The notes below the pieces were generated by a model, which was given only the letters and a program-made list of their open reading frames with translations, was not told the origin of the DNA and did no database searches. The translations under genes and the position numbers were made by a program. Positions 41,521 to 57,841 of a DNA stretch of 64,000 nt are shown here, piece by piece. The stretch covers positions 35,827 through 99,826 of the forward strand of contig CBDBFE010000001.1 of assembly GCA_965204705.1 (NCBI GenBank), in the 5' to 3' direction. Every line of letters begins with the position of its first letter. Positions within the stretch are counted from its first letter, which is position 1. This DNA comes from Caldilineaceae bacterium. Its GTDB lineage: Bacteria; Chloroflexota; Anaerolineae; Caldilineales; Caldilineaceae.

Positions 41521-42847
41521 TCACGGCATCTCCCACAGAAGCCGCAGCGGCACTGCATAGAGCCCCTCGTCGAAGCGCACGCACGCCTCACCATCGTAAA
41601 GCACCACCCCGCCGGTAAACCGCCTGCCTGCAGCATTCTTGAGCTTGCGCAGGGCCTGGAAGTCCGCTGCCGTCACCGTTGCCCCTGCCTTGACTTCTAC
41701 GCCCGCCAGCGCCTGTGTCCCCCGCTCGAGGACGATGTCCACCTCGACGCCGTCCTTGTCCCGGAAGTGAAAAAAGGTAACAGGGTCCGGTTGCCAGCTT
41801 GCCTGCCGGCGTAACTCCTGGTAAACGAAAGTCTCCACCAGTTGCCCCAGCAATGACCGGTCCGCCGCGAGACCGGATGCATCCATCCCAAGCAGAGCGC
41901 AGGCCAGACCGGTATCCCCAAGATGGAGTTTGGGTGTCTTGATGAGGCGTTTCAGGCGATTGCTGTGCCAGGGTGGCAGCTGCTCCAGCAGGAACACCCG
42001 TTCAAGCAGAGTGATGTAATCCCGGATCGTGGGGCGGCTGACTTGGAACGGGGCAGCCAGTCCGGAGAGATTAAACAAAGTAGCCGTCTGGACGGCCGCG
42101 TGCGTCAGCAGCCGCGGCAATACATCGAGGGAACGGATGCGGGCGATCTCAGGTACATCCCGCTGTACCTGGGCTTCAAGATAACTTCGGTACCAATTGG
42201 CGCGTCGCCGGCCTGCGGGTCGCGCCAGCGCGGCGGGATATCCGCCCGCTACAATTCGCCCAATAAGCCCCTTCCCCAGACGCGCTATGCGGCGGCTCTC
42301 GAACCCGCCGCCGAACAGGGCGTCAAGAAAGCCCGGCAACCGGGCCTCGGTGCCGGATGGACCCGGCCCTCCGTGCAGCTCACACTGCGCCAGCGGATGC
42401 AGTCTGACCGTTTCCATGCGGCCGGCCAAAGAATCTGACAGCGCCGGCGTCTGCAACACGTTGCTCGAACCCGTTAGCAGGAAGCGTCCGGGCAGCCGCC
42501 TGCGGTCCACCTCCAGTTTCAAAGCGGCAAAGAGCGCAGGAACCCGTTGCACTTCGTCGAGAATAACCAGATCGGGCAACTCCGCGACGAAGCCCAGCGG
42601 ATCAGCCTCAGCGCCCGCGCGCACAACCTCATCATCAAAGGAGAAGTAGGTGTAATCCTCGGGTCTGTCGGGTAAAGTTCTTGACGGACGTCTCCCGCCG
42701 GCCGGGTTCTCTGAGGTACAGACCATTTGGGCAAGGGTGGTCTTGCCGCACTGTCGAGGCCCCTGGATCAGGACGACCGGCGAGTCCTCCAGGGCCTCTG
42801 TTAAGCGCCTTTCGGCGAAACGGGGGGTACAAGGTATCTCCAGCCAT
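41521..42847 (-). pseudogene. AAA+ ATPase with DUF4143 C-terminal domain; +1 frameshift in a C6 run near the 5' end
   Basis: Track ORF 41521..42726, but the frame stays open upstream through …RFAERRLTEALEDSPVVLIQGPRQCGKTTLAQMV (Walker A) with no start codon. An ATG at 42847 (MAGDTLYP) is in another frame. Removing one C from the run (plus-strand GGGGGG 42822-42827) joins them. May be an assembly error. Confidence 0.65.
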
Positions 42848-43324: not shown

Positions 43325-46300
43325 ATGAACACGACCTCTACAATTCACAAAGCCCTGCAAGAGTTCGCTGCCGCGGTGACGGACAAGCTGACGCAGATCA
43401 CACACGGCGAACCGGAAGAGCAGCTGCGCGCGCCTTTCGAGAATTTCATGGGCGCTGCCGCCGGCGCGCTCGGTTGGGATGTCGTCTGCACCGGTGAAAC
43501 GCCCCTTCCGGATCGCCTCGGCCGCCCGGATTACGCAGTGCATCTGAACAGCCTGCTTGCCGGCTATGTGGAACTCAAACCAGCGGGCACCGGAGCCACT
43601 GCTTCCCGTTTTGTAGGCCACAACCGCAGACAGTTCAACCGCTTCTCCGCCATCCCCAACATCCTCTACACCGACGGCAACGAGTGGGCGCTCTACCGTA
43701 ACGGCGAGCTGGTAGACAGGGTAGTCCGCCTCTCCGGCGATGTCGCTTCCGAGGGCAAAAAAGCGGTTGGGCCGCAGGACGTGCATGCGCTCGAAAGTCT
43801 GCTGCGCGACTTTCTCATGTGGAAGCCCTTCATTCCCACTGACCGCGCTGGCCGCATCGACCTTCGTCGATTTGCCGCGCTGCTCGCGCCGCTCTGCCGC
43901 ATGTTGCGCGACGACGTGACCGATGCACTCAAGCGTCCGGATTCACCCCTCCTGCAACTGGCTCAGGACTGGCGCCAGCTTCTCTTCCCCGACGCGCCGG
44001 ACGAACAGTTCTCCGACGCCTACGCCCAGACCGTCCTTTTCGCGCTGCTGCTGGGCCGCAGCGAGGGAGCCGACCCGCTCACACTCGGAAGCGCAGAAAA
44101 CGCGCTGTCCGCACAGCACAATCTGCTGTCGCGGGCGCTGCAAGTGCTGACCGACCCCAACGCGCGCGCCGACATCGCCGCTCCGTTAGACCTGCTGCTG
44201 CGCGTGGTCGCGGTCGTGCCGCCCGCCGCGCTGACCAGTCCCGACGACCCCTGGCTCTACTTCTACGAGGACTTTCTCGCCGTTTACGATCCCCGTCTGC
44301 GCAAGGACGCCGGCGCCTACTACACGCCGGTCGAGGTCGTGCGCGCACAGGTGCGCCTGATCGACAATCTGCTCGTGGAACGTCTGGGCAAACCGCTCGG
44401 CTTCGCCGACCCTGATGTGGTCACGCTTGATCCGGCGTTGGGAACCGGCACCTACCTGCTCGGCGTCATCGAACACGCCCTCGGCCGCGTCGAAGCCGAG
44501 CAGGGAGCGGGCGCGGTACCCAACCAGGCTACGACGCTGGCCGAAAACCTGTACGGCTTTGAGCTCATGGTAGGCCCCTATGCGGTGAGCGAACTGCGCA
44601 TCAGCCGCGCCTTGCGCGACCGCGGCGGGCAACTGCCCGCGAAGGGCACGCACGTCTTCCTGACCGATACCCTCGAAAGCCCCAATGCCAAGCCGCTTCA
44701 ACCACCGCTTTTCCTGCAGCCGATTGCCGACCAGCACGCCCGCGCCCTGAAGGTCAAAAGCAATGTGCCGGTAATCGTCTGCCTCGGCAACCCGCCCTAC
44801 GACCGGCATGAGGCGGCCACGGACACGAACAGGGCACGCACCGGCGGCTGGGTGCGCCATGGCGATCGCGACGAACGGGCGATCCTGCGCGACTTTCTCG
44901 ATCCGGCCGTCAGCGCCGGACATGGCGGCCATCTCAAGAACCTTTACAATCTGTACGTCTACTTCTGGCGTTGGGCGTTATGGAAGGTCTTTGAGCAGGG
45001 GAACGGCGGGCCGGGCGTGGTCAGCTATATCAGCGCATCGAGCTACTTTGACGGCGACGCCTTTTGTGGGATGCGCGAGCAGATGCGCCGCCAGTGCGAC
45101 GAAATCTGGATTCTCGACCTCGGCGGCGAGGGACGGGGCACGCGGCGCAGCGAAAACGTCTTCGCTATCCAGACGCCTGTTGCCATCGCCGTGGCCTTCC
45201 GCTCGCAGGAGGCAAATACAGACGCGCCTGCAAAAGTCCACTATGCGCGCCTTGAAGGGACGCGCCAAGAGAAGCTGGCCGCGCTCGACGGCATTACCGG
45301 TTGCTCGATAGTGGAGTGGCGAGAGTGTCCCGATGAATGGAAGGCGCCGTTCCGTCCGGCGGGCGAAGGCGATTACTTTTCCCACCCCCTCCTGGCCGAC
45401 CTGATGCCGTGGCAGCAATCCGGTGTCAAAGCTGGACGAACTTGGGTTGTTGCCCCCGAAATGAAGACGCTCCACAACCGTTGGTATCGTCTTCTGCAAG
45501 CAAAGGGAAACGAACGCAGGAGTCTTTTCAAGGATTCTCCCACTGGATGCAAAGCGCACGAAGCCGCGACCCAGTTGCCGCCATCGGAAGACAGGTTGAA
45601 AGCTATTTCCGATCTTGAGACAGGACAACCCGCTCCTGAGCTTGTACGTCTTGCCTACAGATCGTTCGACAGGCAATTCGTCTTTGGTGACGCCCGTCTG
45701 TTGGACAGGCCGGGACCGGCGCTGTGGCGCGCCCACAGCGATAGTCAGGTGTATCTGACCAGTTCGTTCACCCAACCTCTTGGAAATGGCCCCGCTCTGA
45801 CTTCCTCAGTGTCAATTCCCGATCTTCACTACTTTTCAGGCCGTGGCGCAAAAGACGTTCTCCCACTCTACCGCGATAGCCGAGCGTCGCAGGCCAACAT
45901 CGTGCCCGGACTGCTCGAACTACTTGGTGTTGCCTACCAGCACCCGGTCGCTCCGGAAGATTTTCTGGCATACGTCTACGGCGTGTTGGCGCAACCGGCT
46001 TTCACTACGCGCTTCGGCAAAGAACTGGAGACCCGCGAGCTGCGCCTGCCAATCACCTGCGACGCAGCGCTGTTTGAGAAGATGCGCGCGGCCGGCGCGA
46101 AGCTTCTCTGGTTGCATACTTATGGCGAGCGGTTCGTGCCCGAAGGCAAGCCCCGCGGCCAGGTTCCCCCCGGCGCGGCCAGATGCACCGTAGCCGTGCC
46201 CGGTGATACCGACGGCTATCCCGAAACCTTCGCCTACAACGACGAAACCGCCACCCTCCACGTCGGCGCCGGCGAATTCACGCCGGTCGCGCCTGAACTG

Positions 46301-46606
46301 TACGCCTTCGAAGTGTCCGGCCTCAAAGTCGTGCAGTCTTGGCTCAAGTACCGCATGAAGAAAGGCGCCGGCCGCAAATCCTCGCCCCTGGACGACATCC
46401 GCCCCACCCGCTGGACCAGCCAGTTCACCACCGAACTGCTCAAGCTCCTCTGGGTCCTGGAGGCCACCCTGGCCGCCTACCCCGAACAGGCCCAACTGCT
46501 CCAGGAAGTCATCACCGGCGACTGCTTCCACGCCGACGAATTGCCGCCCGTGCCGGAGGATATGCGCAAGCCGCCTCGGGTGGCCAAGAGGGGGTTGTTT
46601 GAGTGA
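43325..46606 (+). CDS. Type IIG-like restriction-modification fusion enzyme (PD-ExK nuclease head + gamma-class N6-adenine MTase + type ISP/IIG-like C-terminal specificity domain)
   Basis: ORF track 1093 aa. N-terminus GRPDYAVHLNSLLAGYVELKPAG (D…ExK as in MmeI-type heads). AdoMet motif VVTLDPALGTGTYLL. Catalytic VIVCLGNPPYD. C-terminal YAFEVSGLKVVQSWLKYRMK block typical of type ISP/IIG TRD regions (recall). Confidence 0.8.
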   Translation: MNTTSTIHKALQEFAAAVTDKLTQITHGEPEEQLRAPFENFMGAAAGALGWDVVCTGETPLPDRLGRPDYAVHLNSLLAGYVELKPAGTGATASRFVGHNRRQFNRFSAIPNILYTDGNEWALYRNGELVDRVVRLSGDVASEGKKAVGPQDVHALESLLRDFLMWKPFIPTDRAGRIDLRRFAALLAPLCRMLRDDVTDALKRPDSPLLQLAQDWRQLLFPDAPDEQFSDAYAQTVLFALLLGRSEGADPLTLGSAENALSAQHNLLSRALQVLTDPNARADIAAPLDLLLRVVAVVPPAALTSPDDPWLYFYEDFLAVYDPRLRKDAGAYYTPVEVVRAQVRLIDNLLVERLGKPLGFADPDVVTLDPALGTGTYLLGVIEHALGRVEAEQGAGAVPNQATTLAENLYGFELMVGPYAVSELRISRALRDRGGQLPAKGTHVFLTDTLESPNAKPLQPPLFLQPIADQHARALKVKSNVPVIVCLGNPPYDRHEAATDTNRARTGGWVRHGDRDERAILRDFLDPAVSAGHGGHLKNLYNLYVYFWRWALWKVFEQGNGGPGVVSYISASSYFDGDAFCGMREQMRRQCDEIWILDLGGEGRGTRRSENVFAIQTPVAIAVAFRSQEANTDAPAKVHYARLEGTRQEKLAALDGITGCSIVEWRECPDEWKAPFRPAGEGDYFSHPLLADLMPWQQSGVKAGRTWVVAPEMKTLHNRWYRLLQAKGNERRSLFKDSPTGCKAHEAATQLPPSEDRLKAISDLETGQPAPELVRLAYRSFDRQFVFGDARLLDRPGPALWRAHSDSQVYLTSSFTQPLGNGPALTSSVSIPDLHYFSGRGAKDVLPLYRDSRASQANIVPGLLELLGVAYQHPVAPEDFLAYVYGVLAQPAFTTRFGKELETRELRLPITCDAALFEKMRAAGAKLLWLHTYGERFVPEGKPRGQVPPGAARCTVAVPGDTDGYPETFAYNDETATLHVGAGEFTPVAPELYAFEVSGLKVVQSWLKYRMKKGAGRKSSPLDDIRPTRWTSQFTTELLKLLWVLEATLAAYPEQAQLLQEVITGDCFHADELPPVPEDMRKPPRVAKRGLFE

Positions 46607-46679: not shown

Positions 46680-48515
46680 ATGAGAATCGACGGGAAACAG
46701 GTTAGCAACCCTTTTTCAGAAGGTGGTGGTGGGCCGCATTTCGAGGCGCACGTTCAAGCAATGTTTGTAACACTTATGCTTACGGGTGGCCATGCACCTT
46801 GCCTACCAACTTGGCCAATCAAGGAGATTAGACTTCAAACCAAGATTGATGGCATATCACTAGATGACTTGATGGTAACCGTCGAGAATCCTGGCAGTGG
46901 AGAAAAGCGCAAGTTGCTTGTGCAAGTTAAGCACGCTATAGAACTCACCGAGAATAACCGGCTTTTCGGAGAAGTGATACAGGCTGCCTGGAGAGATTTC
47001 AACAGAGACCATCCTGTTGACGGCGACCGCCTTGCTCTCATCACAGGGCCACCTAGCAGAATTAGCGATGCTGGATGGATATTAAATCAAGCGAGACATA
47101 CTATCAGCGCTATGGAGTTACTAAAGAGGGTCCAGCGGACTAAATTCAGCAGCCAGGAGAAGCGCAAGAAACTGGCAGCTTTCCAGTGTCAATTGAAAAA
47201 AGCCAACAACGACTGCCAAGTCCCAGACGATGTTCTTTTCATGTTTCTACGCCGATTCTTTTTGGTTCAGTACGACCTGGGGTATGAGACTGGAGGAACT
47301 ATGTCTCTCCTAACTTCCCATATGTCACAATTTACGGACGATCCACTTTGGGCGTGGGGCAGGATTGTTGACGTTGTTCAGACATGGAATCAGGATGCTG
47401 GAATCATTACCCCCGATAATTTACCCGAAGACTTACGCAACGCATTTGAACGCCCACTTCCACAGACTCCTAGAACCGATACCCTACAAGAGCAGCCTCC
47501 TCAGCCTGAGCAGTACTGGAATCAGCATCAGTTTGCTTCCGACTTAGTGTTTGCAAATCTTCTTGGTGCCTGGAACGAAAAACACGAGGCCGATCTCAAG
47601 ATAATCCGCGAACTCACTAGAAGGGAACCGGATGTTTGGATCCATAGCATGAGAGAGACTCTTCAACTTTCTTTAAGCCCTGTATCTCTGAATAGTGGAC
47701 AGTGGCATGTCCCTGATCGAATGGTCTTGTGGAGGGCTCTAAGTAGGAGGGTTTTTGATGATCACTTGGCTCACTTGAAGGAAGTCGCCATCACTGTTCT
47801 GTCTGAGCGAGACCCTAAGTTTGAACTTCCAGCTCAGGATCGATATGCGGCGCAAGTACACGGTGCTGTATTGAAACACTCTTACGGCTTACGTAAGGGA
47901 TTGGCCGAGAGCTTAGCCTTAGTTGGAATACGTCCTGCCGAACTTAGGAACTGCTCGCAACCCGGACCTAAGACTATGGTAGCGCTTGCCGTACGAAAGA
48001 TATTAGAGAACGCGGATTGGGCGCTTTGGGGAAGTTTAGGAAATCTACTTCCCATATTGGCTGAAGCGTCCCCTGACGAATTCTTAAAGGCGGTTGAGAG
48101 TGGCTTACGGCAGAAACCTTGTCCGTTTGATGAACTCTTTGTGCAAGAACAGAAAGGTATGTTGGGAGAAAACCTATTTGCTGGCCTGCTCCGGGCACTT
48201 GAAGCACTGGCATGGTTTGAAGAATACCTAATAAGGTTATGCATAGTTCTTGGCAATTTGGATAGCCGTGATCCAGGAGGCAATTGGGTTAATCGACCTG
48301 CCAAGTCGCTAGCGGGAATTCTGCATCCGAGTCGTCCACAAACATACGCGTCCGCTCAAAAGCAGAAACTTGCCGTTGAGACGCTTCAACAAGAGTTTCC
48401 CGAAGAAGCATGGAAGCTCATTCGCCAGTTGTCTTCTCACCGAAGGGGATATCCTCTCCGTACACATCGTCCAATATGGCGTGACTCAAACCTCGACAGC
48501 AGGAGGGAATCGTGA
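46680..48515 (+). CDS. Large protein with a possible restriction-fold (Cap4/DUF4297-like) N-terminal head and an all-alpha C-terminal region
   Basis: ORF track 611 aa, GC clearly lower than the flanks. N-terminal GGGGPHFEAHVQAMFVTLML…ISLDDLMVTVEN…KLLVQVKH…RLALITGPP gives D…QxK spacing like the nuclease heads of Cap4-type effectors (recall, unverified). No Walker A found. Confidence 0.6.
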   Translation: MRIDGKQVSNPFSEGGGGPHFEAHVQAMFVTLMLTGGHAPCLPTWPIKEIRLQTKIDGISLDDLMVTVENPGSGEKRKLLVQVKHAIELTENNRLFGEVIQAAWRDFNRDHPVDGDRLALITGPPSRISDAGWILNQARHTISAMELLKRVQRTKFSSQEKRKKLAAFQCQLKKANNDCQVPDDVLFMFLRRFFLVQYDLGYETGGTMSLLTSHMSQFTDDPLWAWGRIVDVVQTWNQDAGIITPDNLPEDLRNAFERPLPQTPRTDTLQEQPPQPEQYWNQHQFASDLVFANLLGAWNEKHEADLKIIRELTRREPDVWIHSMRETLQLSLSPVSLNSGQWHVPDRMVLWRALSRRVFDDHLAHLKEVAITVLSERDPKFELPAQDRYAAQVHGAVLKHSYGLRKGLAESLALVGIRPAELRNCSQPGPKTMVALAVRKILENADWALWGSLGNLLPILAEASPDEFLKAVESGLRQKPCPFDELFVQEQKGMLGENLFAGLLRALEALAWFEEYLIRLCIVLGNLDSRDPGGNWVNRPAKSLAGILHPSRPQTYASAQKQKLAVETLQQEFPEEAWKLIRQLSSHRRGYPLRTHRPIWRDSNLDSRRES

Positions 48516-50215
48516 CCAATTACGAGCCTTCGGAGCAATTCGACGTGTATGCCGAGATGGCTGTAGATATGGCTTGCGAGGACATAGAAAAGCTGATAGA
48601 CAAAGATTTTATTGATAAACTGCATGAGTTACCGCAGAAGGCTCGAGATAGGGTTCTTGAGCATATCTCTTCGGATGCCATCTCTATCGCACCCGAAGAG
48701 AAGCGCTTGGCACTCTGGACTGAACTGTCTAGATTCATTAGGGTTCATAGAGATTTCGCCTCAGCTAGTTGGGCATTAGGCGAAGAAGAAATCGTCAAAG
48801 TTGAGAACGTCGCCAAGCGGCTTTCCCCAAACAGCCCAATGGCTGTTCACAAGATGCTATTTGGTGATTATGATTTCCCTCTTTACAAAGACTGGGGAAA
48901 TTGGGATGACTTGGATGAGCAGAGGAGAGCTCGTCGACAGCAAGCTGTCAGTGACATAGTGGCCTTTGGCGATGTGGATGCTGTCATTCAATTTGCCCAA
49001 AGAGTCGAGAAACCCAAGTTTGTGGGAAATGCTTTGGCTGAACTGACTGACGCGAATATCGATGGACGACTACTGCCGAAGATGCTGGATACTGACGATG
49101 AGAAGATCCGGCAGTTTGTGCAAGGCTATGTTTGGGTTCGCAGATACAAGGCAGGATGGGAATGGGCCGATGGACTGGATAGGTCTGGATGGAATGACAC
49201 ACAAATCGGGCTGTTTCTGAGTTGGTTGCCCTTTTCGGGAGGGGCTTGGGAGCGAGCCGAAGCGTGGCTTGGCAAACGAGAAGGGGAGTATTGGCGTAGA
49301 ACTAGTGCTAGATTATTTTACAACACGGATGGCGATATTGGCTTTGCAATTGACAAGCTTATCAACTATCAGCGACCAAAAGCCGCCATACAATGTCTTG
49401 CGCTGATGAAACATGACAAAGGCACGTTTGACAGACAGCAAGCTTTCCGGGCCCTGCGTGCCTCCAGGGACACAGATGAACCTGAGGGCCAAGAGCTTCG
49501 GTATGCCATCATTGAGATCATTCAGGATCTTCAATCAGATCCGGGAGCCAGCCAAGTGGATCTGATGGAGGTCGAGTGGCTCTACCTGCCCCTCTTGAAG
49601 CATCATCCAGGTGCTTCACCAAAGACTCTAGAATTCAGGCTTGCGTCTGACCCAGACTTTTATTGCCAAGTAATTCAGCTAATCTTTCGCCCTGAAGGGC
49701 AGGACGCGCCGTCTGGACAACTTAGCGAGCACGAAAAGGCTTTAGCCCAAAACGCATATTCGCTGCTTTTTGAATGGAAGACGCCTCCAGGTATGCAGCC
49801 GGATGGCATGTTTTCTCAAAAAGCATTTACTGAGTGGCTCAACCACGTCAAAGCCGTCTGTGGCAAGTCAGGACATCTAGGAATCGCTCTCGAGCAAGTA
49901 GGCGAAGTTCTAGTCCATTATCCACCCGACCCTGATGGCTTGTGGATTCACCCAACTATTGCTGATGCTCTGGACGACGAAGATTCCGAAGCTATGAGGG
50001 ACGGTTTCAAAATCGGAATCTCAAATTCCAGGGGTTTCCATGTCGTCGACGGTACAGGCAAGGAAGAACGCGAACTTGCAGAGGGAAACAGGCAAAAAGC
50101 TGACGAGCTAGAGAATGCAGGGTATCACCACTTGGCACAAACTTTCAGAGAAATAGCTAAACGATACGACGATGAATCGGACGAGGCAATCACTAGAGGT
50201 GCTCAGATGGATTAA
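48512..50215 (+). CDS. Large helical-repeat-like protein, translationally coupled to 46680..48515
   Basis: ORF track 567 aa. GTG start overlaps the upstream stop (GTGA at 48512-48515), with AGGAGGG 5 nt upstream. No enzymatic motif recognised. Confidence 0.6.
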   Translation: MTNYEPSEQFDVYAEMAVDMACEDIEKLIDKDFIDKLHELPQKARDRVLEHISSDAISIAPEEKRLALWTELSRFIRVHRDFASASWALGEEEIVKVENVAKRLSPNSPMAVHKMLFGDYDFPLYKDWGNWDDLDEQRRARRQQAVSDIVAFGDVDAVIQFAQRVEKPKFVGNALAELTDANIDGRLLPKMLDTDDEKIRQFVQGYVWVRRYKAGWEWADGLDRSGWNDTQIGLFLSWLPFSGGAWERAEAWLGKREGEYWRRTSARLFYNTDGDIGFAIDKLINYQRPKAAIQCLALMKHDKGTFDRQQAFRALRASRDTDEPEGQELRYAIIEIIQDLQSDPGASQVDLMEVEWLYLPLLKHHPGASPKTLEFRLASDPDFYCQVIQLIFRPEGQDAPSGQLSEHEKALAQNAYSLLFEWKTPPGMQPDGMFSQKAFTEWLNHVKAVCGKSGHLGIALEQVGEVLVHYPPDPDGLWIHPTIADALDDEDSEAMRDGFKIGISNSRGFHVVDGTGKEERELAEGNRQKADELENAGYHHLAQTFREIAKRYDDESDEAITRGAQMD

Positions 50216-50333
50216 CTCAGCAAGGATAGAGGCCTGCCCGCTCTCGACAGCTGTATCTTCCTCCCTAACAGAGTATTAGACCGAAGGCTGTACAACACCA
50301 GAGTATTAATCGACAGAACTGAAGGACCTCCCA

Positions 50334-51209
50334 GTGAAGCATGAACAAGAATTCGACAGGTTCCTCTCCAAGGAAGTAAACCTCAACGCATCCCGACTCA
50401 CTGACTTGAACAGAAGGGTTTCTTATATTACCTCTCTCCTCGAGGACTTGGATTCGTTCAAAACAGTCGAGAAGCAGGGTTCGTATGCGTTAGGCACAGT
50501 CATCAAACCAACCAGGGGCCGTGGATATGACGCTGACCTATTGCTTCATATGCATCATTCCCCAGGCAAAGAGCCGAAGGACTACATAAGAGATGTTTAT
50601 AAACGTCTCAAAAGGGACAAGGACTTCAGTGATAAAGTGCATTTAGCAACCAGGTGCGCTTACATTGAGTATGTAGGAGATTTCCATTTGGATATCGTGC
50701 CTTGTGTCACGAAAGGAAAACAGATATTTATTTTCAATGGTAGGGACAACAAGATCGAAGTAACGGACGGGACCGGCTATAGAGACTGGCTCAACCAGAA
50801 GAACGAAATCACAGACGGACAGCTTAAGAAAGTCACGAAACTGCTTAAATATCTTAGAGATCACAAGAACAATTTCCTTGTCAAATCAATTCTCCTGACT
50901 ACACTTGTTGGCCTCAACGTACATGACAATGAGGTGGGCAGCAAAGCCTATACAGATACGCCAACCGCGTTGAAGACGATTTCAAATCGCATAAATTCCT
51001 TCTTGCAGAATAATGAGCGAATGCCAACAATCCGAAATCCAGCCTTGCGAAGCGAGAAATTCACAAGGCGCTGGGATCAAAAGAAATACAGCCAGTTCAG
51101 AAAAATGTTCAACATCTACAACGGCAAGATAAATGAGGCATTCGACGCTACTGATCCGGACGAGAGCATTGCCCAATGGCAAAAGCTGTTTGGAAGGAAT
51201 TTTGGTTAA
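50334..51209 (+). CDS. Minimal Pol-beta-fold nucleotidyltransferase, SMODS/CD-NTase-like
   Basis: ORF track 291 aa (GTG start, GAAGGA upstream). QGSYALGTVIKP (G-S motif), GYDADLLLH (DxD), FHLDIVPC (third acidic residue), with an N-terminal helix before the GS motif as in SMODS proteins. Lowest GC in the window (22/60 in line 50701). Confidence 0.65.
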   Translation: MKHEQEFDRFLSKEVNLNASRLTDLNRRVSYITSLLEDLDSFKTVEKQGSYALGTVIKPTRGRGYDADLLLHMHHSPGKEPKDYIRDVYKRLKRDKDFSDKVHLATRCAYIEYVGDFHLDIVPCVTKGKQIFIFNGRDNKIEVTDGTGYRDWLNQKNEITDGQLKKVTKLLKYLRDHKNNFLVKSILLTTLVGLNVHDNEVGSKAYTDTPTALKTISNRINSFLQNNERMPTIRNPALRSEKFTRRWDQKKYSQFRKMFNIYNGKINEAFDATDPDESIAQWQKLFGRNFG

Positions 51210-51526: not shown

Positions 51527-52621
51527 CTATGAATCCACGGGAACGGATGCGGGGAACAAATTGCCACTCCCAAGCATCTCTTCGATCGACAGGGCCTGCG
51601 CTCCTGAGAGATCGGAAACATATCGGATGTCGGAGACTCCGTGGGGGATATCTGACGGAAGGGAAGGAACTACCTCAACTTGGTAAAACCTCAGCGATTC
51701 TGAGGCAATCTCAGAATCGAAGCCCGCCTCGAGTCCAGTCCTCCAATTGGTTCCCAGAGTGCTGGCGACAACGTAATCGAGCCTCTTCAATGCTTCCGAA
51801 CTACCAACTCGGCGTCGTATCCTTTCTAGCAATGTCCTCACTTTCGGACCGCCACCTGAACTTTCAACGAAGACTGATGCAATGGCTACTCGCGTACCCG
51901 CGGGCGGATGGAGTTGCCGATGCGAGAAGCTATGCATCCGGGTTCTTCGGCTGGTGCTCTTAATCTCGAGACGCTCCGGCCCGCTGTTAAAGTCGTAAGC
52001 ATCTGTGGATTCCGCACGCCAGCCTTCCAGAAGGACCTCAGGATCCCGAGCCTGAGCAATCAGCCACAACTCGGCCCAAAGACCTTGGATCGTTCCCCTG
52101 GGAGGCTGGGATGCTAGTCTGAATAGCTCGATAAGCCCAGCGACCATCCGGCGAAGCTCATCGCTTGTTGGCGTCTCTCCAAGTGATCGAAGCAAAGTTT
52201 CGGATGCATCGAAGAACCTGTCCCTCAGAAGTGCATCAGAGTCGACGCACGTCAACACAGAGAACTGCTCACGCCCTACCTCTACACCTGCCTCGCTGAT
52301 AGAGCAATGCATCCCGTGCCCCACTCGAAGATGTCGGCCCTCGAAGTCCGACAAAACCGCGGCCCCAGCCGTGTGAGTGGTCTCGACGAGAATAGCTGGG
52401 TTCCCCTGATGGTCCCGACCGACGCGATAGCGAGAATGGCGGGCTATGCGCGCCGTCTCGTAGACTCGCCCATGGCTAGACGCAGGCACTCTGAGTCCAG
52501 CGAACAGTTTCTTAAGATCCCGTGCCCTCGCGCCCCGCGTCAAGGTGCACTCCCTATCGTTAGGTTGCCATCTCGGTGAAGACTCCCACGCGCATGAACT
52601 TAGGCATCCATAAGGAGACAA
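51527..52621 (-). CDS. PD-(D/E)XK motif protein (DUF4420-like) of the Z1 cluster
   Basis: ORF track 364 aa. The true start is probably downstream of the overlap with the Z1 gene (for example TTG at 52543). GLWAELWLIAQ…YDFNSGPERLEIKST gives the D…ExK core typical of this family (recall). Confidence 0.65.
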   Translation of the reverse strand: MSPYGCLSSCAWESSPRWQPNDRECTLTRGARARDLKKLFAGLRVPASSHGRVYETARIARHSRYRVGRDHQGNPAILVETTHTAGAAVLSDFEGRHLRVGHGMHCSISEAGVEVGREQFSVLTCVDSDALLRDRFFDASETLLRSLGETPTSDELRRMVAGLIELFRLASQPPRGTIQGLWAELWLIAQARDPEVLLEGWRAESTDAYDFNSGPERLEIKSTSRRTRMHSFSHRQLHPPAGTRVAIASVFVESSGGGPKVRTLLERIRRRVGSSEALKRLDYVVASTLGTNWRTGLEAGFDSEIASESLRFYQVEVVPSLPSDIPHGVSDIRYVSDLSGAQALSIEEMLGSGNLFPASVPVDS

Positions 52622-54866
52622 CTGGTACGTGCCCCCGCAGAAGACTTGGCGGCCGCGCCGAGTCGGTTAGGTTTAGATCATGGATCTGCACGGTAACCGT
52701 TTCATCGGAGCGGATGTCCCGATCTCCCGGGTATACGCTTCCGCGAAGTTTCACAGGTTGAACGGGGGCAGCCCCCTGGAACAAGTTAACTATCCGTCCG
52801 TGGTAGTCGATCTGCCGGCGGCGCTTCCCCCCGCCCGGCAGTATGGAGCGCCGATCAGCCATGAGATAGACAACTGCAGACGCTTCAGGATTGCTCTTTA
52901 GATGCCACTGGATCGCCAACTCCGCAGCCGAGAAATTCGGGGCATCACGCCAGGAGTACCACATGCGTACCAGGAGGTTCTCGAGGAGACTCTTAAGGGA
53001 AATGCCTTCCGCGAAAGCGTTCCGTTGCTCTAGCGTCCGCTGGTCGCTCCCGGGATCCTCTTGAAACGAGAGCCCTTCAAGGAATGCCTCAATGACGTCC
53101 CAGTTTGATGCTATCTTGGCGTCTTCCTCTGGAGTCCATGGCTGTATCTGGTGCGTCCACTCTGGGACCTTTAAGTGTTGGTAGATTTCCGGCAACACGG
53201 AGCGACGAGTTGGACGGAGTGACTGGGCGAGCAGCATTCGCCTCCGCCAATCCGCCATCGAATGCCCTGACTGGGCGAGCCCACGGAGTTCCTCCATCAC
53301 ATGGGATTCATGATCAATGTAATTCTCGTAGTCTCTTCTGACATCAGCATCAAGAAAGACACGGCAGAGGCCCAGATAGTCCCGCTTATAGCCAAAGAAC
53401 CTTCCACGCTGTTGAATCGTGTCGGCAACGCCCCCTCCGCGCCCTCTCGGCATATAAGTGGTGGTTAGGCCATTGACAGTGAACCCTCTACCCAAGTTTT
53501 CGCCGCCCACGAGTATGTGTGAATGTGCTGAACTCCAGTTGTCTTGGGTCCATGATTTCAACACACTGGAATTCACCTCCCAAGTCCGAGTAGTACGCAT
53601 GGATGTAGGTAGGTACTCAAGGACGTCTTCAAATGCAGGGAACGTCTCGTGGCCGTCGTTCTGTTGCCTGTAAGCTTCTACCGACTCTGCTAGATCGTCG
53701 TAGGTGTCGCGGAAGGCCTCAACGAGTTCCTCGCGATCGGGCTCTCCAAGAGCAAGTTCAAGTAACTCCGCCCACGATTCCGTGGCTCCTTCAACCCACT
53801 TCTTGAACTGATAGTGGTCCATTTTGTACATCGACGGATGGACGAGCATCGAACGATGCTCCTGTGTGGGCTCGCTTTTCCCGCGATGGTAAGCCTGAAC
53901 TGCGACTCCAACATAAAATAGACGCAACGCCTCTAGCAGACTGTCAGGCGGTGCGACGTCGCTCTCATCGTCTATGACTTGCAGGTCGTGCTCTGGAATC
54001 GTGCTCACGAGCCTACCGCCATTGAAGAACGATCGTCCCCCGCAGTAGCCGGTGCCGGCGGCGAGAGTCCACCCGAATCGAGGAGACAGACTATCCAGAA
54101 CCTTGATCAATAGGAGAGCCTGTGGCGTCGCGGTGTACTGGACGTACGTGTGCCGTGGAAGCGCACCACGCAACGAGAGCAAGGCTTCGTATACTGGGCT
54201 AGTTTCATCCTGTTTGACCTTGGTGTTGAGTCCGTGCTGATCCGCCTCATCGTCGATGATCAGGCAGGGCAGGCCGCTGAGATCCAACTGACGCAGGGCA
54301 TCAACGAGGCCATTCACGCGCCGCTTACTCTTGAGCACGGTTATCAATGCGGTTTTTCGTGGGAAGCCTGGCAACTCAGGCTGGCCCCATTGCTGTAGTA
54401 GGTGACTAAGCTGCTGTGGGAGATCCGGGTTGTTGGTCTGAGCTTCGAAAATGACCCATCGACCAGCGGTGTTCCCAAGATCCAGATCGTGTCTGAGTCG
54501 CTTCACGGTTTGGTTGTAGAGGTTCAACTTCGTGCCCGAAAGCACTATAATTAACGGGAAGCGATTGTCGCACGCGAGCGCCGCGACAGTTGTGAATGAG
54601 AGGGTCTTTCCGCTCTGCACGTAACCGACGACAAGGCCGGTTTCCTGCGCGTCCTCCTCTTCGCTCGGAGAGACGCAGCGTGCAATGATCTTCATTCCAG
54701 ACTGCACGATTTCATTTCGAGCGCTCTTGGGAAGTCCTAGATCAGCCTGTCGCTTCAGGAGGCGCAGTGCTTCCCCGTCCTCCACCAACAGGGGACGCCA
54801 CCGCCATCCTGGAGGTAATTCGCCTGCGAGTTCAGTTATGACCTCGCCCCCTTTTCCGTTCGCCAT
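52560..54866 (-). CDS. Z1-domain protein (SF2 helicase-like P-loop NTPase + Z1 domain)
   Basis: Track ORF 52560..54926. Likely start MANGKGGEV at 54866 (GGAGGA 5 nt upstream). Walker A GYVQSGKTLSF, Walker B LIIDDEADQHG. Layout as in Z1-domain proteins found with C5-MTases. Confidence 0.75.
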   Translation of the reverse strand: MANGKGGEVITELAGELPPGWRWRPLLVEDGEALRLLKRQADLGLPKSARNEIVQSGMKIIARCVSPSEEEDAQETGLVVGYVQSGKTLSFTTVAALACDNRFPLIIVLSGTKLNLYNQTVKRLRHDLDLGNTAGRWVIFEAQTNNPDLPQQLSHLLQQWGQPELPGFPRKTALITVLKSKRRVNGLVDALRQLDLSGLPCLIIDDEADQHGLNTKVKQDETSPVYEALLSLRGALPRHTYVQYTATPQALLLIKVLDSLSPRFGWTLAAGTGYCGGRSFFNGGRLVSTIPEHDLQVIDDESDVAPPDSLLEALRLFYVGVAVQAYHRGKSEPTQEHRSMLVHPSMYKMDHYQFKKWVEGATESWAELLELALGEPDREELVEAFRDTYDDLAESVEAYRQQNDGHETFPAFEDVLEYLPTSMRTTRTWEVNSSVLKSWTQDNWSSAHSHILVGGENLGRGFTVNGLTTTYMPRGRGGGVADTIQQRGRFFGYKRDYLGLCRVFLDADVRRDYENYIDHESHVMEELRGLAQSGHSMADWRRRMLLAQSLRPTRRSVLPEIYQHLKVPEWTHQIQPWTPEEDAKIASNWDVIEAFLEGLSFQEDPGSDQRTLEQRNAFAEGISLKSLLENLLVRMWYSWRDAPNFSAAELAIQWHLKSNPEASAVVYLMADRRSILPGGGKRRRQIDYHGRIVNLFQGAAPVQPVKLRGSVYPGDRDIRSDETVTVQIHDLNLTDSARPPSLLRGHVPVVSLWMPKFMRVGVFTEMAT

Positions 54867-54891
54867 TTCGTCCTCCGTTCTTTGGTAAACT

Positions 54892-56514
54892 CTACGGCTT
54901 AGAAAAAACCTTTCCGAGCAGATCATTGAATCGCCGTCTCACCTCGCCCGCTTGGCGAGCGCCGGCCTGACGGGCAGTTATCTCGGCGATTGCCAACCCG
55001 GCCGCAAAGCGCGTTAGCAACTCCAGGTTCTCGTAGCCGATTCCCACATAGCGCTCAGAGAAAGGGTGTCTTAGCGACATGCGTAGCCGAATGACATCAT
55101 GTTGACCGCTATCGCCCGACTCCATGTGTTCAGCGATCTCGAACCAGTCTTGCAAATGCGAAGGCTCATTGGAGACCTCAACAGTGACGCGCCACCTTCT
55201 TGAACGATAAGCTAGATCGATCGTTGCGGGGAACAATTCTGTTCCGGGTGATAAGTCATCGGGCAGCGGGCTTTCGGTGGGGACCAACTCGCCAACCCTC
55301 GAGTTACTGAACTCCCGACCTAGTACGGACGCTGTTCCCTCCGAGGCACTCTTTGCTTCGTCGCTCAGGCGAGTCTCAGGTGAGCGTCTGGCCCCGGTTC
55401 GCAGGCCCCGCGCCTGCCTTATCAGCGGCAGCGGCTCATCGTCAGCGTACTCACGCAGAAGGTCGACGAACGGCTCTTCATGCTCCTCCCATCGGAAACC
55501 ATCCTTGGTGTGCGAAATCTCGAACCCTTCGAGCGTCAGTTCGCCAAAGAGGCGCTGGTACTCGTACGAGTTAGATGCTCCGAATATCGCCCGGGGTCGG
55601 TAAGTTTCATCCCCGCTTCCCTCGATGAGGCGTTTCCGACGGAAGAGGGCCAGCCCTGCGTTTGCTGTGCTTCCAACTGCACGTATTGCCAGGAACCCGT
55701 GTGCTCGCAGACCACCACCCAAGTCGAAGTCAATTGGCTTTGACCAGCGCTTATGCTCCCCCTCTGGATCGTCGAATCGTGGTCCCCGAAAGATTTCCAC
55801 TTCTTCATCAACAAGCTTCTGCTCTGGGTTTGTACCATGCTGAAACACCAGTTCAAAAGAACCGTCACGAAGGAACATTCGGTAGATGCTTGCCAGGTGC
55901 TGCCGAATCTTGCTGATCGTCTTCCCGTAAGGTGGGCTATGGAGACCAGAGACGATCACGTCCGTGCCATGAGCCTCCAGCGGAGCGGGGAATGTCTCTG
56001 GCTGCACTGTTTCAAGTCTCTTCTCGACTATCTCGTTGAAGTCGAGTGTTATCTCACGACGAACGGACTCGCCAAGGGCTTTGGACCGCACTGTGAGCCT
56101 ACGTCCAAACCAAGCGGCAGCCGTCTTCATACCCATCCCAAACTCGGCCAGACCTGATACGTCAGGTGGAGGCTCTGCCGGACGAAGCGCCCGCGCCCAC
56201 TCATCGCGATAGATACCCGCCGCGTTGTCCGAAACCTGAATGAAGCCCCCGTCTGATGTGTCGATCTTTACCTTCACGAGCAGCTTACCAGTGTGGCCGT
56301 CGACCCGGGCAAGCTCATGCTGGTGGTCCTGAAAGCTCTGAATGGCGTTGTCTACGAACTCCGCAGCAGCGAACCACGGTCGATAGTTCAGATGCCGGAA
56401 CACGCCTAGTACGCTCACCTCCGGTCGAATGTCTATCGACTCGACATCTGGGGTAAACGACGTTTGGCTCTCAGCCCCTGTTCTTTCATCAGGTTTGGGT
56501 GTCAACTGGTCCAT
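54892..56514 (-). CDS. GHKL-superfamily ATPase (HATPase_c_3 / MORC-like)
   Basis: ORF track 540 aa. N-box AAEFVDNAIQSF, G1 VSDNAAGI, G2 AEFGMGMKTAAAWFG. Overlaps the MTase stop by 26 nt. Confidence 0.75.
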   Translation of the reverse strand: MDQLTPKPDERTGAESQTSFTPDVESIDIRPEVSVLGVFRHLNYRPWFAAAEFVDNAIQSFQDHQHELARVDGHTGKLLVKVKIDTSDGGFIQVSDNAAGIYRDEWARALRPAEPPPDVSGLAEFGMGMKTAAAWFGRRLTVRSKALGESVRREITLDFNEIVEKRLETVQPETFPAPLEAHGTDVIVSGLHSPPYGKTISKIRQHLASIYRMFLRDGSFELVFQHGTNPEQKLVDEEVEIFRGPRFDDPEGEHKRWSKPIDFDLGGGLRAHGFLAIRAVGSTANAGLALFRRKRLIEGSGDETYRPRAIFGASNSYEYQRLFGELTLEGFEISHTKDGFRWEEHEEPFVDLLREYADDEPLPLIRQARGLRTGARRSPETRLSDEAKSASEGTASVLGREFSNSRVGELVPTESPLPDDLSPGTELFPATIDLAYRSRRWRVTVEVSNEPSHLQDWFEIAEHMESGDSGQHDVIRLRMSLRHPFSERYVGIGYENLELLTRFAAGLAIAEITARQAGARQAGEVRRRFNDLLGKVFSKP

Positions 56515-57841
56515 TTGGACTCTCCGTTATGGAGTCGTCATTGCAGAGAAGTCTGGCCGCGATCCGGTAGACCACACCAACATGCACGGCGTTGCCTAGC
56601 GCCCTAAAAGTTGCCGTCCGAGAGTCTGGTACGTGAAAGGTACTTGGAAAGCCCTGCAGACGTAAGCCTTCTACTCGCGAGAGGTGTCGACGCATCGGCC
56701 CCAGAATAGGAATCTGCGTTGATGTCATCGCAACTAGAGACGGGCTGTTCCTATACCTCTTCACGCGAAGGCCTGATGGTCTGAACTGAAGAATATGCTT
56801 CCACAGATCTCTGACTTCCCCTTGGCAGTTCCACTCCAGCTTTCGAAGAGAGGGAGGAAATGATCGAAGCCTTAGAACCCAGTCCGAGGGGAGTTCACTC
56901 TGTATTGAAGACAACCATGTTCGATTGGCTTTGATGAATCGCACCTTCCACTGAGGGAAATGTCCAACTCGGCTCCGGGCGTAGCTCGGCAGTGCCTGGA
57001 AGCTTTCCAGCGTCACTTCCGTGCCATTCTTAGGGGGGGGACCTTTGCCAGCGCCGATCACGTGGGCCCAGGGAGTCATGTCTTCATAGGGATAGTCGGC
57101 GTCAATCTCGTCTCCCCAGATCGGAAATGACGGGAGTTCGGCTCTCTCTTCTGGCAACGCTTTTAGGAAGGCATTCCAGTGCTCGATACACCGACGGTGC
57201 TGGTCGACGATCTGCGTTTCCTTTCGGTCACGCTCCGTTAGCTCGTCGCCAGACTGAACGACTCTGTTCATCGAGGTGACTGCTGTTCGGTCCCTAGGAG
57301 GGAAAATGTCCTTCGGTATGCATGTGTGTGAAGCCACTGCAAAAAAGCGCTCGCGGTGGTGTGGGAAGCCCAAATGGTGAGGTGAAAGCAGCCCTTTACC
57401 GCCGCTGACCCTATGTTCAGTCGCGCTAACGTGGTAGCCAAGTCCTCTCAAGCTAGACTTGACGATACGCCACGTTCGCCCCTCGTCGTGACGCTCGAAG
57501 TTGCCAACGTTTTCCAGAATCACATAGCTGGGTCGATGCCGTTTCAGGACGTCGAGAATTTCGTGAAATAGGGTTCCAGATGTCTCATCGTTCAATCCAG
57601 CCTGAGTCCCCGACTTGGAGAAGGGCTGACATGGAAACCCCGCACATAGCACGTCGTGAGGGGGCACTTGCTGCTTGGAAGCACGAATGTCGCCTTGGAT
57701 TTCCGACCCATGAGGAAAGTTTCGGCGATAGAGTTCCCGCAGCATAGGGTCTATTTCGCATGAGAAGACGCACTCGTGTCCGAGACTTTCTAGCGCGACA
57801 CGGAAGCCCCCGAGGCCAGCGAACAGGTCAACGAACCTCAT
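56489..57841 (-). CDS. DNA (cytosine-5) methyltransferase
   Basis: ORF track 450 aa. Motif I DLFAGLGGF, motif IV GFPCQPFS, motif VI ILENV, then RLQGFP and motif X GNAV. Confidence 0.9.
   Translation of the reverse strand: MRFVDLFAGLGGFRVALESLGHECVFSCEIDPMLRELYRRNFPHGSEIQGDIRASKQQVPPHDVLCAGFPCQPFSKSGTQAGLNDETSGTLFHEILDVLKRHRPSYVILENVGNFERHDEGRTWRIVKSSLRGLGYHVSATEHRVSGGKGLLSPHHLGFPHHRERFFAVASHTCIPKDIFPPRDRTAVTSMNRVVQSGDELTERDRKETQIVDQHRRCIEHWNAFLKALPEERAELPSFPIWGDEIDADYPYEDMTPWAHVIGAGKGPPPKNGTEVTLESFQALPSYARSRVGHFPQWKVRFIKANRTWLSSIQSELPSDWVLRLRSFPPSLRKLEWNCQGEVRDLWKHILQFRPSGLRVKRYRNSPSLVAMTSTQIPILGPMRRHLSRVEGLRLQGFPSTFHVPDSRTATFRALGNAVHVGVVYRIAARLLCNDDSITESPNGPVDTQT

Follow-up and report, generated by a model that had tools for sequence, protein, structure and literature searches.

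A putative nuclease–solenoid gene, split in two, beside an orphan CD-NTase in a Caldilineaceae defence island

Do three neighbouring genes in a bacterial defence island form one immune system, or do they share no more than a site? The question is raised by a 64,000-nucleotide stretch of a Caldilineaceae bacterium genome (contig CBDBFE010000001.1; hereafter the window), in which three open reading frames (ORFs) of low GC content follow one another on the same strand. A preliminary description, made from the sequence, had proposed that a nuclease-headed helical protein (ORF1), a coupled helical partner (ORF2) and a nucleotidyltransferase (ORF3) constitute a single synthase-plus-effector system. 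The ORFs are as it described them, in coordinates, lengths, low GC content and the GTGA overlap with AGGAGGG. We favour, with moderate confidence, a different grouping, namely two independent modules, ORF1 with ORF2 and ORF3 by itself, that are neighbours within a defence-island hotspot. The features concerned are as follows (lengths in amino acids, aa).

46680–48515, plus strand: ORF1, 611 aa
46680–47450, plus strand: ORF1 head, about residues 1–257, predicted PD-(D/E)xK nuclease of the LmuA/Cap4 kind with a small helical subdomain
47514–48515, plus strand: ORF1 C-terminal part, residues 279–611, predicted first third of an alpha-solenoid body (ARM/HEAT-type fold matches)
48501–48515, plus strand: fission joint, with AGGAGGG at 48501–48507 and the ORF2 GTG at 48512 overlapping the ORF1 TGA at 48513–48515
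48512–50215, plus strand: ORF2, 567 aa, GTG start, predicted remaining two thirds of the alpha-solenoid body (fused homologues; all-alpha model)
50334–51209, plus strand: ORF3, 291 aa, GTG start, compact CD-NTase/SMODS cyclase

Alignments to homologues show ORF1 and ORF2 to be halves of a single protein rather than two partners. Searching for homologues of ORF1 brought up hundreds of unnamed proteins, many of them about 900–1070 aa long, and in BLAST alignments the fused homologues hold ORF1 and then ORF2 without a gap (residues 1–613 correspond to ORF1, with ORF2 following from 614). In 80 loci of this family, each fetched from a different species and with genes called by a simple, crude ORF rule, the ORF1-like and ORF2-like parts lie in a single ORF about 75 times; about 56 of these fused genes have an ORF1-type head (about 1176–1200 aa), and about 20 have other heads. 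Of the 80, only the close relative L006 has its split at this joint. The junction itself, cAGGAGGgaatcGTGAcc, combines a strong ribosome-binding site with a GTG start that overlaps a TGA stop, and this Shine–Dalgarno–GTGA arrangement is kept in five genomes, those of the window, L001, L091, L092 (where it reads AGGAGC) and L093. The GTG of ORF2 is the valine of a linker, '…DDWxKGVT…', in the fused relatives, which read straight through, and the split position falls in a segment modelled as disordered. All genes are under purifying selection, with omega (dN/dS) at 0.13–0.25 and that of ORF2 at 0.18–0.25. Because the joint is conserved, lacks an obvious slippery site and separates two halves that are both under purifying selection, the split is an ancestral, functional fission with translational coupling. 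The coupling of ORF2 to ORF1 seen in the preliminary description stands at the level of translation, but its reading of ORF2 as a separate partner gives way to halves of one gene.

Two other explanations of the joint, programmed frameshifting and misassembly, were rejected, given the presence of the junction in five independent assemblies and the lack of an obvious slippery heptamer. Locus L029 was likewise rejected as a second independent fission, its in-frame stop lying elsewhere: at L029:9700–10150 the stop comes ~30 codons ahead of the usual joint and could mark a pseudogene, a sequencing error or some other split. As a separate observation, comparison of window positions 46680–50215 with L091 and L092 gave synonymous divergence (dS) of 1.6–2.3 for ORF1 versus 0.8–0.9 for ORF2 in the same genome pairs; ORF1 has diverged far more than ORF2, which suggests recombination or mosaicism within the split pair.

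The AlphaFold model of ORF1 (mean predicted local distance difference test score, pLDDT, 83.8) comprises a head, mostly at 80–95, with an alpha-beta-beta-beta-alpha-beta core, a disordered linker at residues 259–276, a series of helical repeats and a low-confidence tail at residues about 586–611. The putative catalytic residues E22, D62/D63, Q82 and K84 sit on the PD-(D/E)xK core of the model, and the segment GGGG-HFEAHVQ, D62/D63 and Q82-x-K84 are invariant or nearly so across 32–58 homologues. The best Foldseek matches to ORF1 are LmuA chains (9hr5_C with E 9.9e-5 and probability 1.0, then 9nxx_D and 9hqx_A), with Avs3 (8dgc_B, E 0.013) lower and ARM/HEAT proteins making up the remainder. 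With a PD-(D/E)xK core, conserved acidic residues and lysine, and structural likeness to this group, the head is a putative restriction-fold nuclease of the Cap4/LmuA kind. The preliminary description had likened it to Cap4/DUF4297 heads; the D…QxK spacing and the fold agree with that likeness, and the LmuA match adds to it, but the Pfam match does not follow. Across all Pfam-A, ORF1 has no match at E ≤ 1, the head alone none at E ≤ 0.01 and 58 homologues none at E ≤ 0.05, and neither the full ORF1 alignment nor a head-only alignment has a sequence-profile match in the Protein Data Bank (PDB) at E up to 10.

The model of ORF2 (pLDDT 86.7) is all-alpha, and its fold matches are generic solenoids alone, such as CRM1, importins and beta-catenin. 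Together with the C-terminal part of ORF1, it is modelled as a HEAT/ARM-like alpha-solenoid body of about 900 aa without a known domain. In the profile and PADLOC scans that the preliminary description had suggested, no NCBIfam or PADLOC model matched ORF1, ORF2 or the 58 homologues, and no NTPase, SAVED, TIR or SMC module was detected in ORF1 or ORF2 by library scans and models, nor, for NTPases, in the 58 homologues. Two further points of that description hold on this evidence: the rest of ORF1 and all of ORF2 are all-alpha with no known sensor domain, and no canonical CBASS, Lamassu, Avs or DUF4297–HerA partner is present.

The split gene belongs to a large family. A profile search against 1.84 billion representative proteins recovered 6901 clusters at 50% identity (3801 at E ≤ 1e-30), and a member is encoded in at least 452 species-representative genomes, bacterial and archaeal, in a patchy distribution that includes E. 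coli, Klebsiella, Aeromonas and Pantoea. Among complete E. coli genomes, 7–8 of 5426 carry a 1180-aa copy annotated 'hypothetical protein'; a search of 50,697 phage records found no copy. The head of most members is the LmuA/Cap4-like nuclease, and in others it is SLFN_AlbA_2, PNP_UDP_1, DUF4145 or an unknown 375-aa domain; plasmid members have HTH or HigA-like heads, and at L037 an SIR2_2 protein is encoded as a separate, overlapping upstream gene. What the members with Schlafen, PNP, DUF4145 or HTH heads have in common with ORF1 is its C-terminal part, not its head. By these alignments the body is kept while the head changes from one immune effector domain to another; at least six heads alternate on it, a repertoire that sensor–effector immune proteins typically use. 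The conserved 900-aa solenoid with its at least six heads is probably an NTPase-free sensor–effector immune receptor. We came across no account of the family in the libraries or in the literature (including the papers on DefensePredictor and the domain-centric, BREX and Schlafen papers), a search that left out supplementary tables and post-2023 defence databases.

Some members depart from the common architecture. At L042:8476–9114 and L078:2195–2839, an overlapping gene of 213–215 aa from no known family precedes 'headless' members of ~860 aa, one of which is in a Klebsiella pneumoniae metagenome-assembled genome; this small gene may be another detached head. At L040:6011–11641, a Pol-beta nucleotidyltransferase, an HsdS specificity domain of Type I and the family solenoid body are all encoded in one 1877-aa ORF, which could be a real fusion or the product of a lost stop codon.

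ORF3, the third gene, is by its sequence a bona fide CD-NTase with an intact, active-looking site. It matches SMODS in Pfam (1e-24, 88 bits against a cut-off of 26.5), the DncV-like NTFase family (8e-7, 30.3 bits against 24.9) and the PADLOC cyclase model PDLC00793 (2.4e-109, 364 bits), and its profile aligns end to end with solved CD-NTases (9sa4, 2.7e-19, residues 2–305; also CdnG and CdnC). The motifs QGSYALGT (residue 48), YDADLLL (65) and FHLDIVPC (117) are conserved in 120 relatives and supply QGS 48, DAD 66–68 and D120, the GS…DxD…D arrangement of a Pol-beta active site. The SMODS/CD-NTase-like identity given in the preliminary description is borne out by these matches. NCBIfam equivalogs score below their cut-offs for ORF3, and its product class is therefore not assignable.

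The relatives of ORF3 usually have a partner. At about 36–60% identity, including loci at about 56–60%, the order is patatin and then cyclase, and two such loci (L087 and L088) also carry HTH/M78 genes resembling CapH/CapP-type regulators. Among metagenomic loci of relatives with at least 35% identity, a patatin gene lies immediately upstream in about 36 of 60, and other loci have E2 with SAVED-HNH, or SAVED-2TM. No patatin, SAVED, 2TM, NucC or Cap2/3 gene is among the families listed for the window, and ORF3 is without the roughly 20-aa C-terminal tail of its relatives. The possibility that ORF3 is a decaying pseudogene was rejected on the strength of intact ORFs, conserved motifs and an omega of 0.14–0.23, which holds with or without ORF1 and ORF2 alongside; since it is under purifying selection, ORF3 does something. 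DNA homology across its genomic contexts extends from about 15–30 nt ahead of the start codon to the stop codon in L086, L091 and L174, or to about 40–70 nt beyond it in L001 and L175, so that the shared DNA is essentially the gene and its ribosome-binding site. ORF3 behaves as a self-contained single-gene module without a recognisable adjacent effector.

Co-occurrence across genomes separates the two modules. A cyclase lies near the family gene at 1 of the 80 species loci and is absent from the other 79; by a hidden Markov model of ORF3's lineage, the cyclase occurs among the family loci solely at the Caldilineaceae relative. Downstream of family genes no partner recurs, with SMODS in 1 of 72 neighbours. 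Conversely, none of 80 metagenomic loci of ORF3 relatives has ORF1 or ORF2. These counts weigh against the proposal that the three genes are one synthase-plus-effector system. The trio recurs only in close relatives from one hotspot, which comes near to the outcome, three genes never found together in other genomes, that the preliminary description had named as refuting its proposal. That hotspot (DUF4432 … PAPS_reduct), in Caldilineaceae-like genomes, is the source of all close relatives, whose gene orders are as follows; the Type IIG enzyme is the restriction-methylase upstream of ORF1.

Window, L001 and L091: Type IIG, ORF1, ORF2, cyclase
L093: Type IIG, ORF1, ORF2; neither cyclase nor remnant
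L092: another 970-aa gene with a Type IIG (ISP) remnant, ORF1, ORF2; neither cyclase nor remnant
L174: Type IIG, unrelated PHP/AAA gene, cyclase; no ORF1 or ORF2
L086: C5-MTase, GHKL, cyclase; no ORF1 or ORF2
L175: Type IIG, different fused family member, IS1595 gene, ORF2 3' end, cyclase

Each module thus occurs without the other, in a pattern of reciprocal loss that also opposes a single system: L092 and L093 are without ORF3, and L086, L174 and L175 are without an intact ORF1/ORF2 pair. Searches after ORF2 in L092 and L093 found no cyclase remnant, and searches around the orphan cyclases found no patatin or ORF1/ORF2 remnant other than the ORF2 3' end in L175. ORF1 and ORF2 are intact and under purifying selection both with and without the cyclase (the latter in L092 and L093). 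In the window, L001, L091 and L093, the Type IIG gene keeps its position directly upstream of the split pair. The fused member in L175 is truncated, its alignment to ORF2 stopping just before the IS1595 gene. In L174 the ORF1/ORF2 slot is filled by an 891-aa gene (L174:4450–7125) with faint PHP, AAA_23 and AAA_21 matches, which suggests that cassettes are exchanged at this position, with the Type IIG gene on one side and the cyclase on the other. L086 has a C5-MTase and GHKL pair upstream of its orphan cyclase, and the window has a separate C5-MTase operon.

The surroundings of the three ORFs in the window mark the region as a defence island. The neighbours named in the preliminary description, a Type IIG enzyme on one side and a C5-MTase/GHKL/Z1 operon on the other, are confirmed by PADLOC and Pfam.

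43325–46606, plus strand: Type IIG restriction-methylase, single chain, 1093 aa (PADLOC REase_MTase_IIG, E = 0)
51527–52621, minus strand: DUF4420 PD-(D/E)xK protein (Pfam)
52560–54926, minus strand: Z1 protein (Pfam)
54892–56514, minus strand: HATPase_c_3 GHKL protein (Pfam)
56489–57841, minus strand: C5 DNA methylase (Pfam; PADLOC MTase matches)

The gene at 43325–46606 matches Type_ISP_C (3.7e-74) and N6_Mtase (3.6e-7) in Pfam and combines in one chain an N-terminal PD-ExK motif (RPDYAV…GYVELK, from the translation), an N6-MTase and a Type_ISP_C specificity domain, in that order, as a Type IIG enzyme does. Assignment as a true Type ISP enzyme was rejected: such enzymes carry a helicase in published descriptions, and this protein is without a helicase module and matches Type IIG models. 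The four genes at 51527–57841 (minus strand) are an operon of a separate, methylase-linked restriction-type system on the strand opposite to ORF1–ORF3. Composition sets the three ORFs apart from both neighbours, with a GC content of 0.44–0.49 versus 0.63 for the Type IIG gene and 0.55–0.57 for the downstream operon, and GC at third codon positions (GC3) of 0.46–0.49 for ORF1 and ORF2 versus 0.75 for the Type IIG gene and ~0.82 for host-like genes of related genomes. Both modules are low-GC cargo of foreign composition, a comparison that does not discriminate whether they arrived together.

Other observations concern the window more widely. The left border of the island is not the same in the window as in related genomes: just upstream of the Type IIG gene, the window has a gene for an AAA_14 and DUF4143 ATPase (41521–42726, minus strand), and the relatives have a DUF4432 gene at that position. 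Elsewhere in the window, one gene has a match at 8e-141 to PDC-S01, a phage-defence candidate in PADLOC, and a further match at 7e-38 is to a second model of PDC-S01. There are also very strong leucine-rich-repeat matches (LRR_4 at 6e-95, LRR_1 and LRR_8), whose gene is probably that at 3593–7660 (plus strand, 1356 aa), an assignment that is a guess.

The position behind the Type IIG gene points to a second explanation, in which ORF1 and ORF2 serve the restriction–modification (R-M) enzyme, either as a guard that fires when the Type IIG or Type I enzyme is inhibited or as an extra nuclease or scaffold subunit. The trigger of such a guard would be phage anti-restriction proteins, by analogy with PrrC, which guards EcoprrI. 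Among 70 upstream neighbours of family genes, Pfam identifies HsdS in 9, N6_Mtase in 8, Eco57I in 7, MmeI_Mtase in 6, Type_ISP_C in 2 and BrxL in 1 (the N6_Mtase, Eco57I and MmeI_Mtase counts overlap). About 27% of members lie directly downstream of HsdS or Type IIG/MmeI-type genes, many of which touch or overlap the family gene, stop against start codon, and an R-M gene occurs in the flanks of at least 14 of 50 long loci, a BLAST lower bound. A Type IIG gene precedes the family gene in the window, L001, L091, L093 and L175, an ISP remnant does so in L092, and the single ORF of L040 fuses HsdS to the family body.

We nevertheless consider this explanation unlikely. About 70% of members are without an adjacent R-M gene, and copies stand alone in E. 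coli and Shewanella. The E. coli copy (WP_115423912, 1180 aa; L089, NZ_LR778147.1 4558904–4562446), borders a degraded prophage in the single context examined, with tail-fibre genes beside it and a tRNA-Thr integration site nearby, and the Shewanella copy, on a plasmid, adjoins Abi and SieB genes. The gap in GC3 between ORF1/ORF2 and the Type IIG gene indicates that they were acquired separately. R-M operons are, moreover, known insertion sites for unrelated defence genes. A single Type I R-M operon (L003:1921–18772) has several unrelated defence-type genes between hsdM and hsdR: SLFN/HATPase_c_4, an NTase_sub_bind and Pol-beta/HsdS pair, a fused family member, SIR2_2, GmrSD and AAA_15.

Several observations weigh against the reading of two independent modules. 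A defence role for the family is drawn from genomic context and architecture only, and the association with R-M genes is missing in the majority of members noted above. For the nuclease head, the Foldseek template-modelling scores to LmuA are low (0.26–0.38), because the query is a two-domain model, and no sequence profile ties the head to Pfam, the Cap4/DUF4297 model included, or to a PDB chain. The remaining points concern the independence of ORF3. ORF2 and ORF3 are adjacent in three of six contexts of ORF3's tight clade, and the ORF2 3' remnant lies directly upstream of the L175 cyclase. ORF2 and ORF3 share a strand across a spacer of 118 nt, in which promoter and terminator scans, themselves uninformative, detected no terminator. 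ORF3's clade is the sole branch seen without a canonical effector. Finally, the reciprocal losses represent few events rather than many independent ones, because the contexts come from one hotspot in closely related genomes.

These last points, from adjacency to the missing effector, also favour a clade-specific capture, in which ORF3, after losing its patatin effector, took the neighbouring ORF1 and ORF2 as a replacement. ORF3 would then sense infection and make a cyclic nucleotide, a solenoid pocket unlike SAVED, CARF or STING would bind it, and the head would degrade DNA. The placement of ORF3 after ORF2 in the window, L001 and L091, the low GC of both modules, the purifying selection on ORF3 and the loss of its C-terminal tail in a clade uniquely without a patatin, SAVED or E2 partner all agree with such a capture, and Cap4-type nucleases are classic CBASS effectors. 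We judge it distinctly improbable all the same: the family does without a cyclase at 79 of 80 species loci, the pair is intact and selected in L092 and L093 with neither cyclase nor remnant, the cyclase is equally selected in L086 and L174 without the pair, the DNA block common to the contexts is the cyclase gene alone, and no nucleotide-sensor domain was detected in ORF1 or ORF2. About as improbable is the corollary that the solenoid body is a new cyclic-nucleotide receptor for the orphaned CD-NTase, unrelated to SAVED, CARF, STING and other known CBASS sensors. A non-immune role, with ORF1 and ORF2 as a DNA-repair or mobile-element maintenance factor hitch-hiking in islands and ORF3 as an unrelated relic, would suit the absence of matches in the phage records and the heterogeneity of most neighbours, but is very improbable in view of head swapping typical of conflict systems (nuclease, Schlafen, SIR2, PNP, HTH), recurrent R-M, BREX, Abi and prophage-edge contexts, the patchy distribution down to 7–8 of the E. 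coli genomes searched, and the foreign composition.

Under the two-module reading that we prefer, the translationally coupled ORF1 and ORF2 chains would presumably reassemble into a nuclease head on a solenoid body, with the body acting as a sensor or autoinhibitory scaffold that holds the nuclease inactive. The trigger bound by the body would derive from a phage or from stress and would most likely be a protein, and its binding would release, dimerise or oligomerise the head, which would then cut DNA and stop the infection. The oligomerisation step is borrowed by analogy from LmuA, and the sensing logic would be that of DSR2 and Avs, minus the NTPase. The split gene has lodged directly behind the Type IIG enzyme, as about a quarter of the family has behind R-M genes. 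ORF3, which probably acts on its own, comes from a canonical CBASS lineage; it has lost its effector together with the C-terminal tail, and persists as a single-gene cassette.

The locus bears on more than one question. A family of about 6900 clusters in Bacteria and Archaea has no Pfam, NCBIfam or PADLOC model, its members carry no annotation beyond 'hypothetical protein', and defence catalogues rest on named families; because native E. coli copies exist, the family is directly testable. The window offers a natural two-chain version, useful for dissecting how head and body communicate. That purifying selection maintains an orphan CD-NTase prompts one to ask what role a cyclase has when no effector is linked to it, and if ORF3 did capture ORF1 and ORF2, their helical body would be a new kind of cyclic-nucleotide receptor and the pairing a live example of a signalling system gaining an effector. 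More generally, adjacency in a defence hotspot is not to be taken as an operon without co-occurrence across genomes.

Comparison with known systems places each module. ORF3 is closest to Type I CBASS with patatin/CapV-type effectors, being a full-length CD-NTase with an intact site whose relatives lie in patatin-then-cyclase operons. It differs in having no recognised effector beside it, since no model in Pfam, NCBIfam or PADLOC recognises ORF1 or ORF2, and in the pattern of co-occurrence, the family not being found with cyclases outside one lineage. Compared with Cap4/DUF4297 proteins, the ORF1 head is without a Pfam profile match and is followed by an all-alpha solenoid instead of a C-terminal SAVED domain.

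LmuA of Lamassu is the best structural match to ORF1, and the two share a layout in which a PD-(D/E)xK nuclease with a catalytic lysine (putative in ORF1) stands at the N terminus and a helical domain comes after it. The LmuA nuclease is inactive in the monomer and cuts DNA once oligomerised, which makes oligomerisation a plausible model for the activation of ORF1. The oligomerisation domain of LmuA is small, however, in contrast to about 900 aa of repeats here, and there is no sequence-level match. Neither the SMC-like ATPase LmuB nor LmuC is present; the flanking genes are identified otherwise, and ORF2 is a predicted solenoid without ATPase motifs. Avs proteins combine a repeat sensor with a nuclease-type head, and their heads can be swapped. 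Avs3 (PDB 8dgc) gives the weak fold match to ORF1 reported above (E 0.013), but no STAND or other P-loop NTPase was found in ORF1, ORF2 or the 58 homologues.

In DSR2, a SIR2 head sits on a HEAT-repeat body that binds phage proteins, which switch the effector on or off. The family would share with it the logic of an effector head on a helical-repeat body in a protein of about 1000 aa, a likeness of logic rather than demonstrated homology, and some members use an SIR2_2 protein as head (L037). The window copy differs in its predicted nuclease head, no PADLOC match was found, and no DSR2 structure is among the top 50 fold matches. The pSlfn study validated Schlafen heads fused to diverse sensors as phage-defence effectors, 17.2% of them fused to unannotated domains. 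Part of our family likewise carries an SLFN_AlbA_2 head; the copy in the window has a nuclease head instead, and the helical body was neither named nor tested in that study. By analogy with these systems, the nuclease–solenoid design resembles DSR2, Avs, the pSlfn fusions and LmuA, and would not be categorically new.

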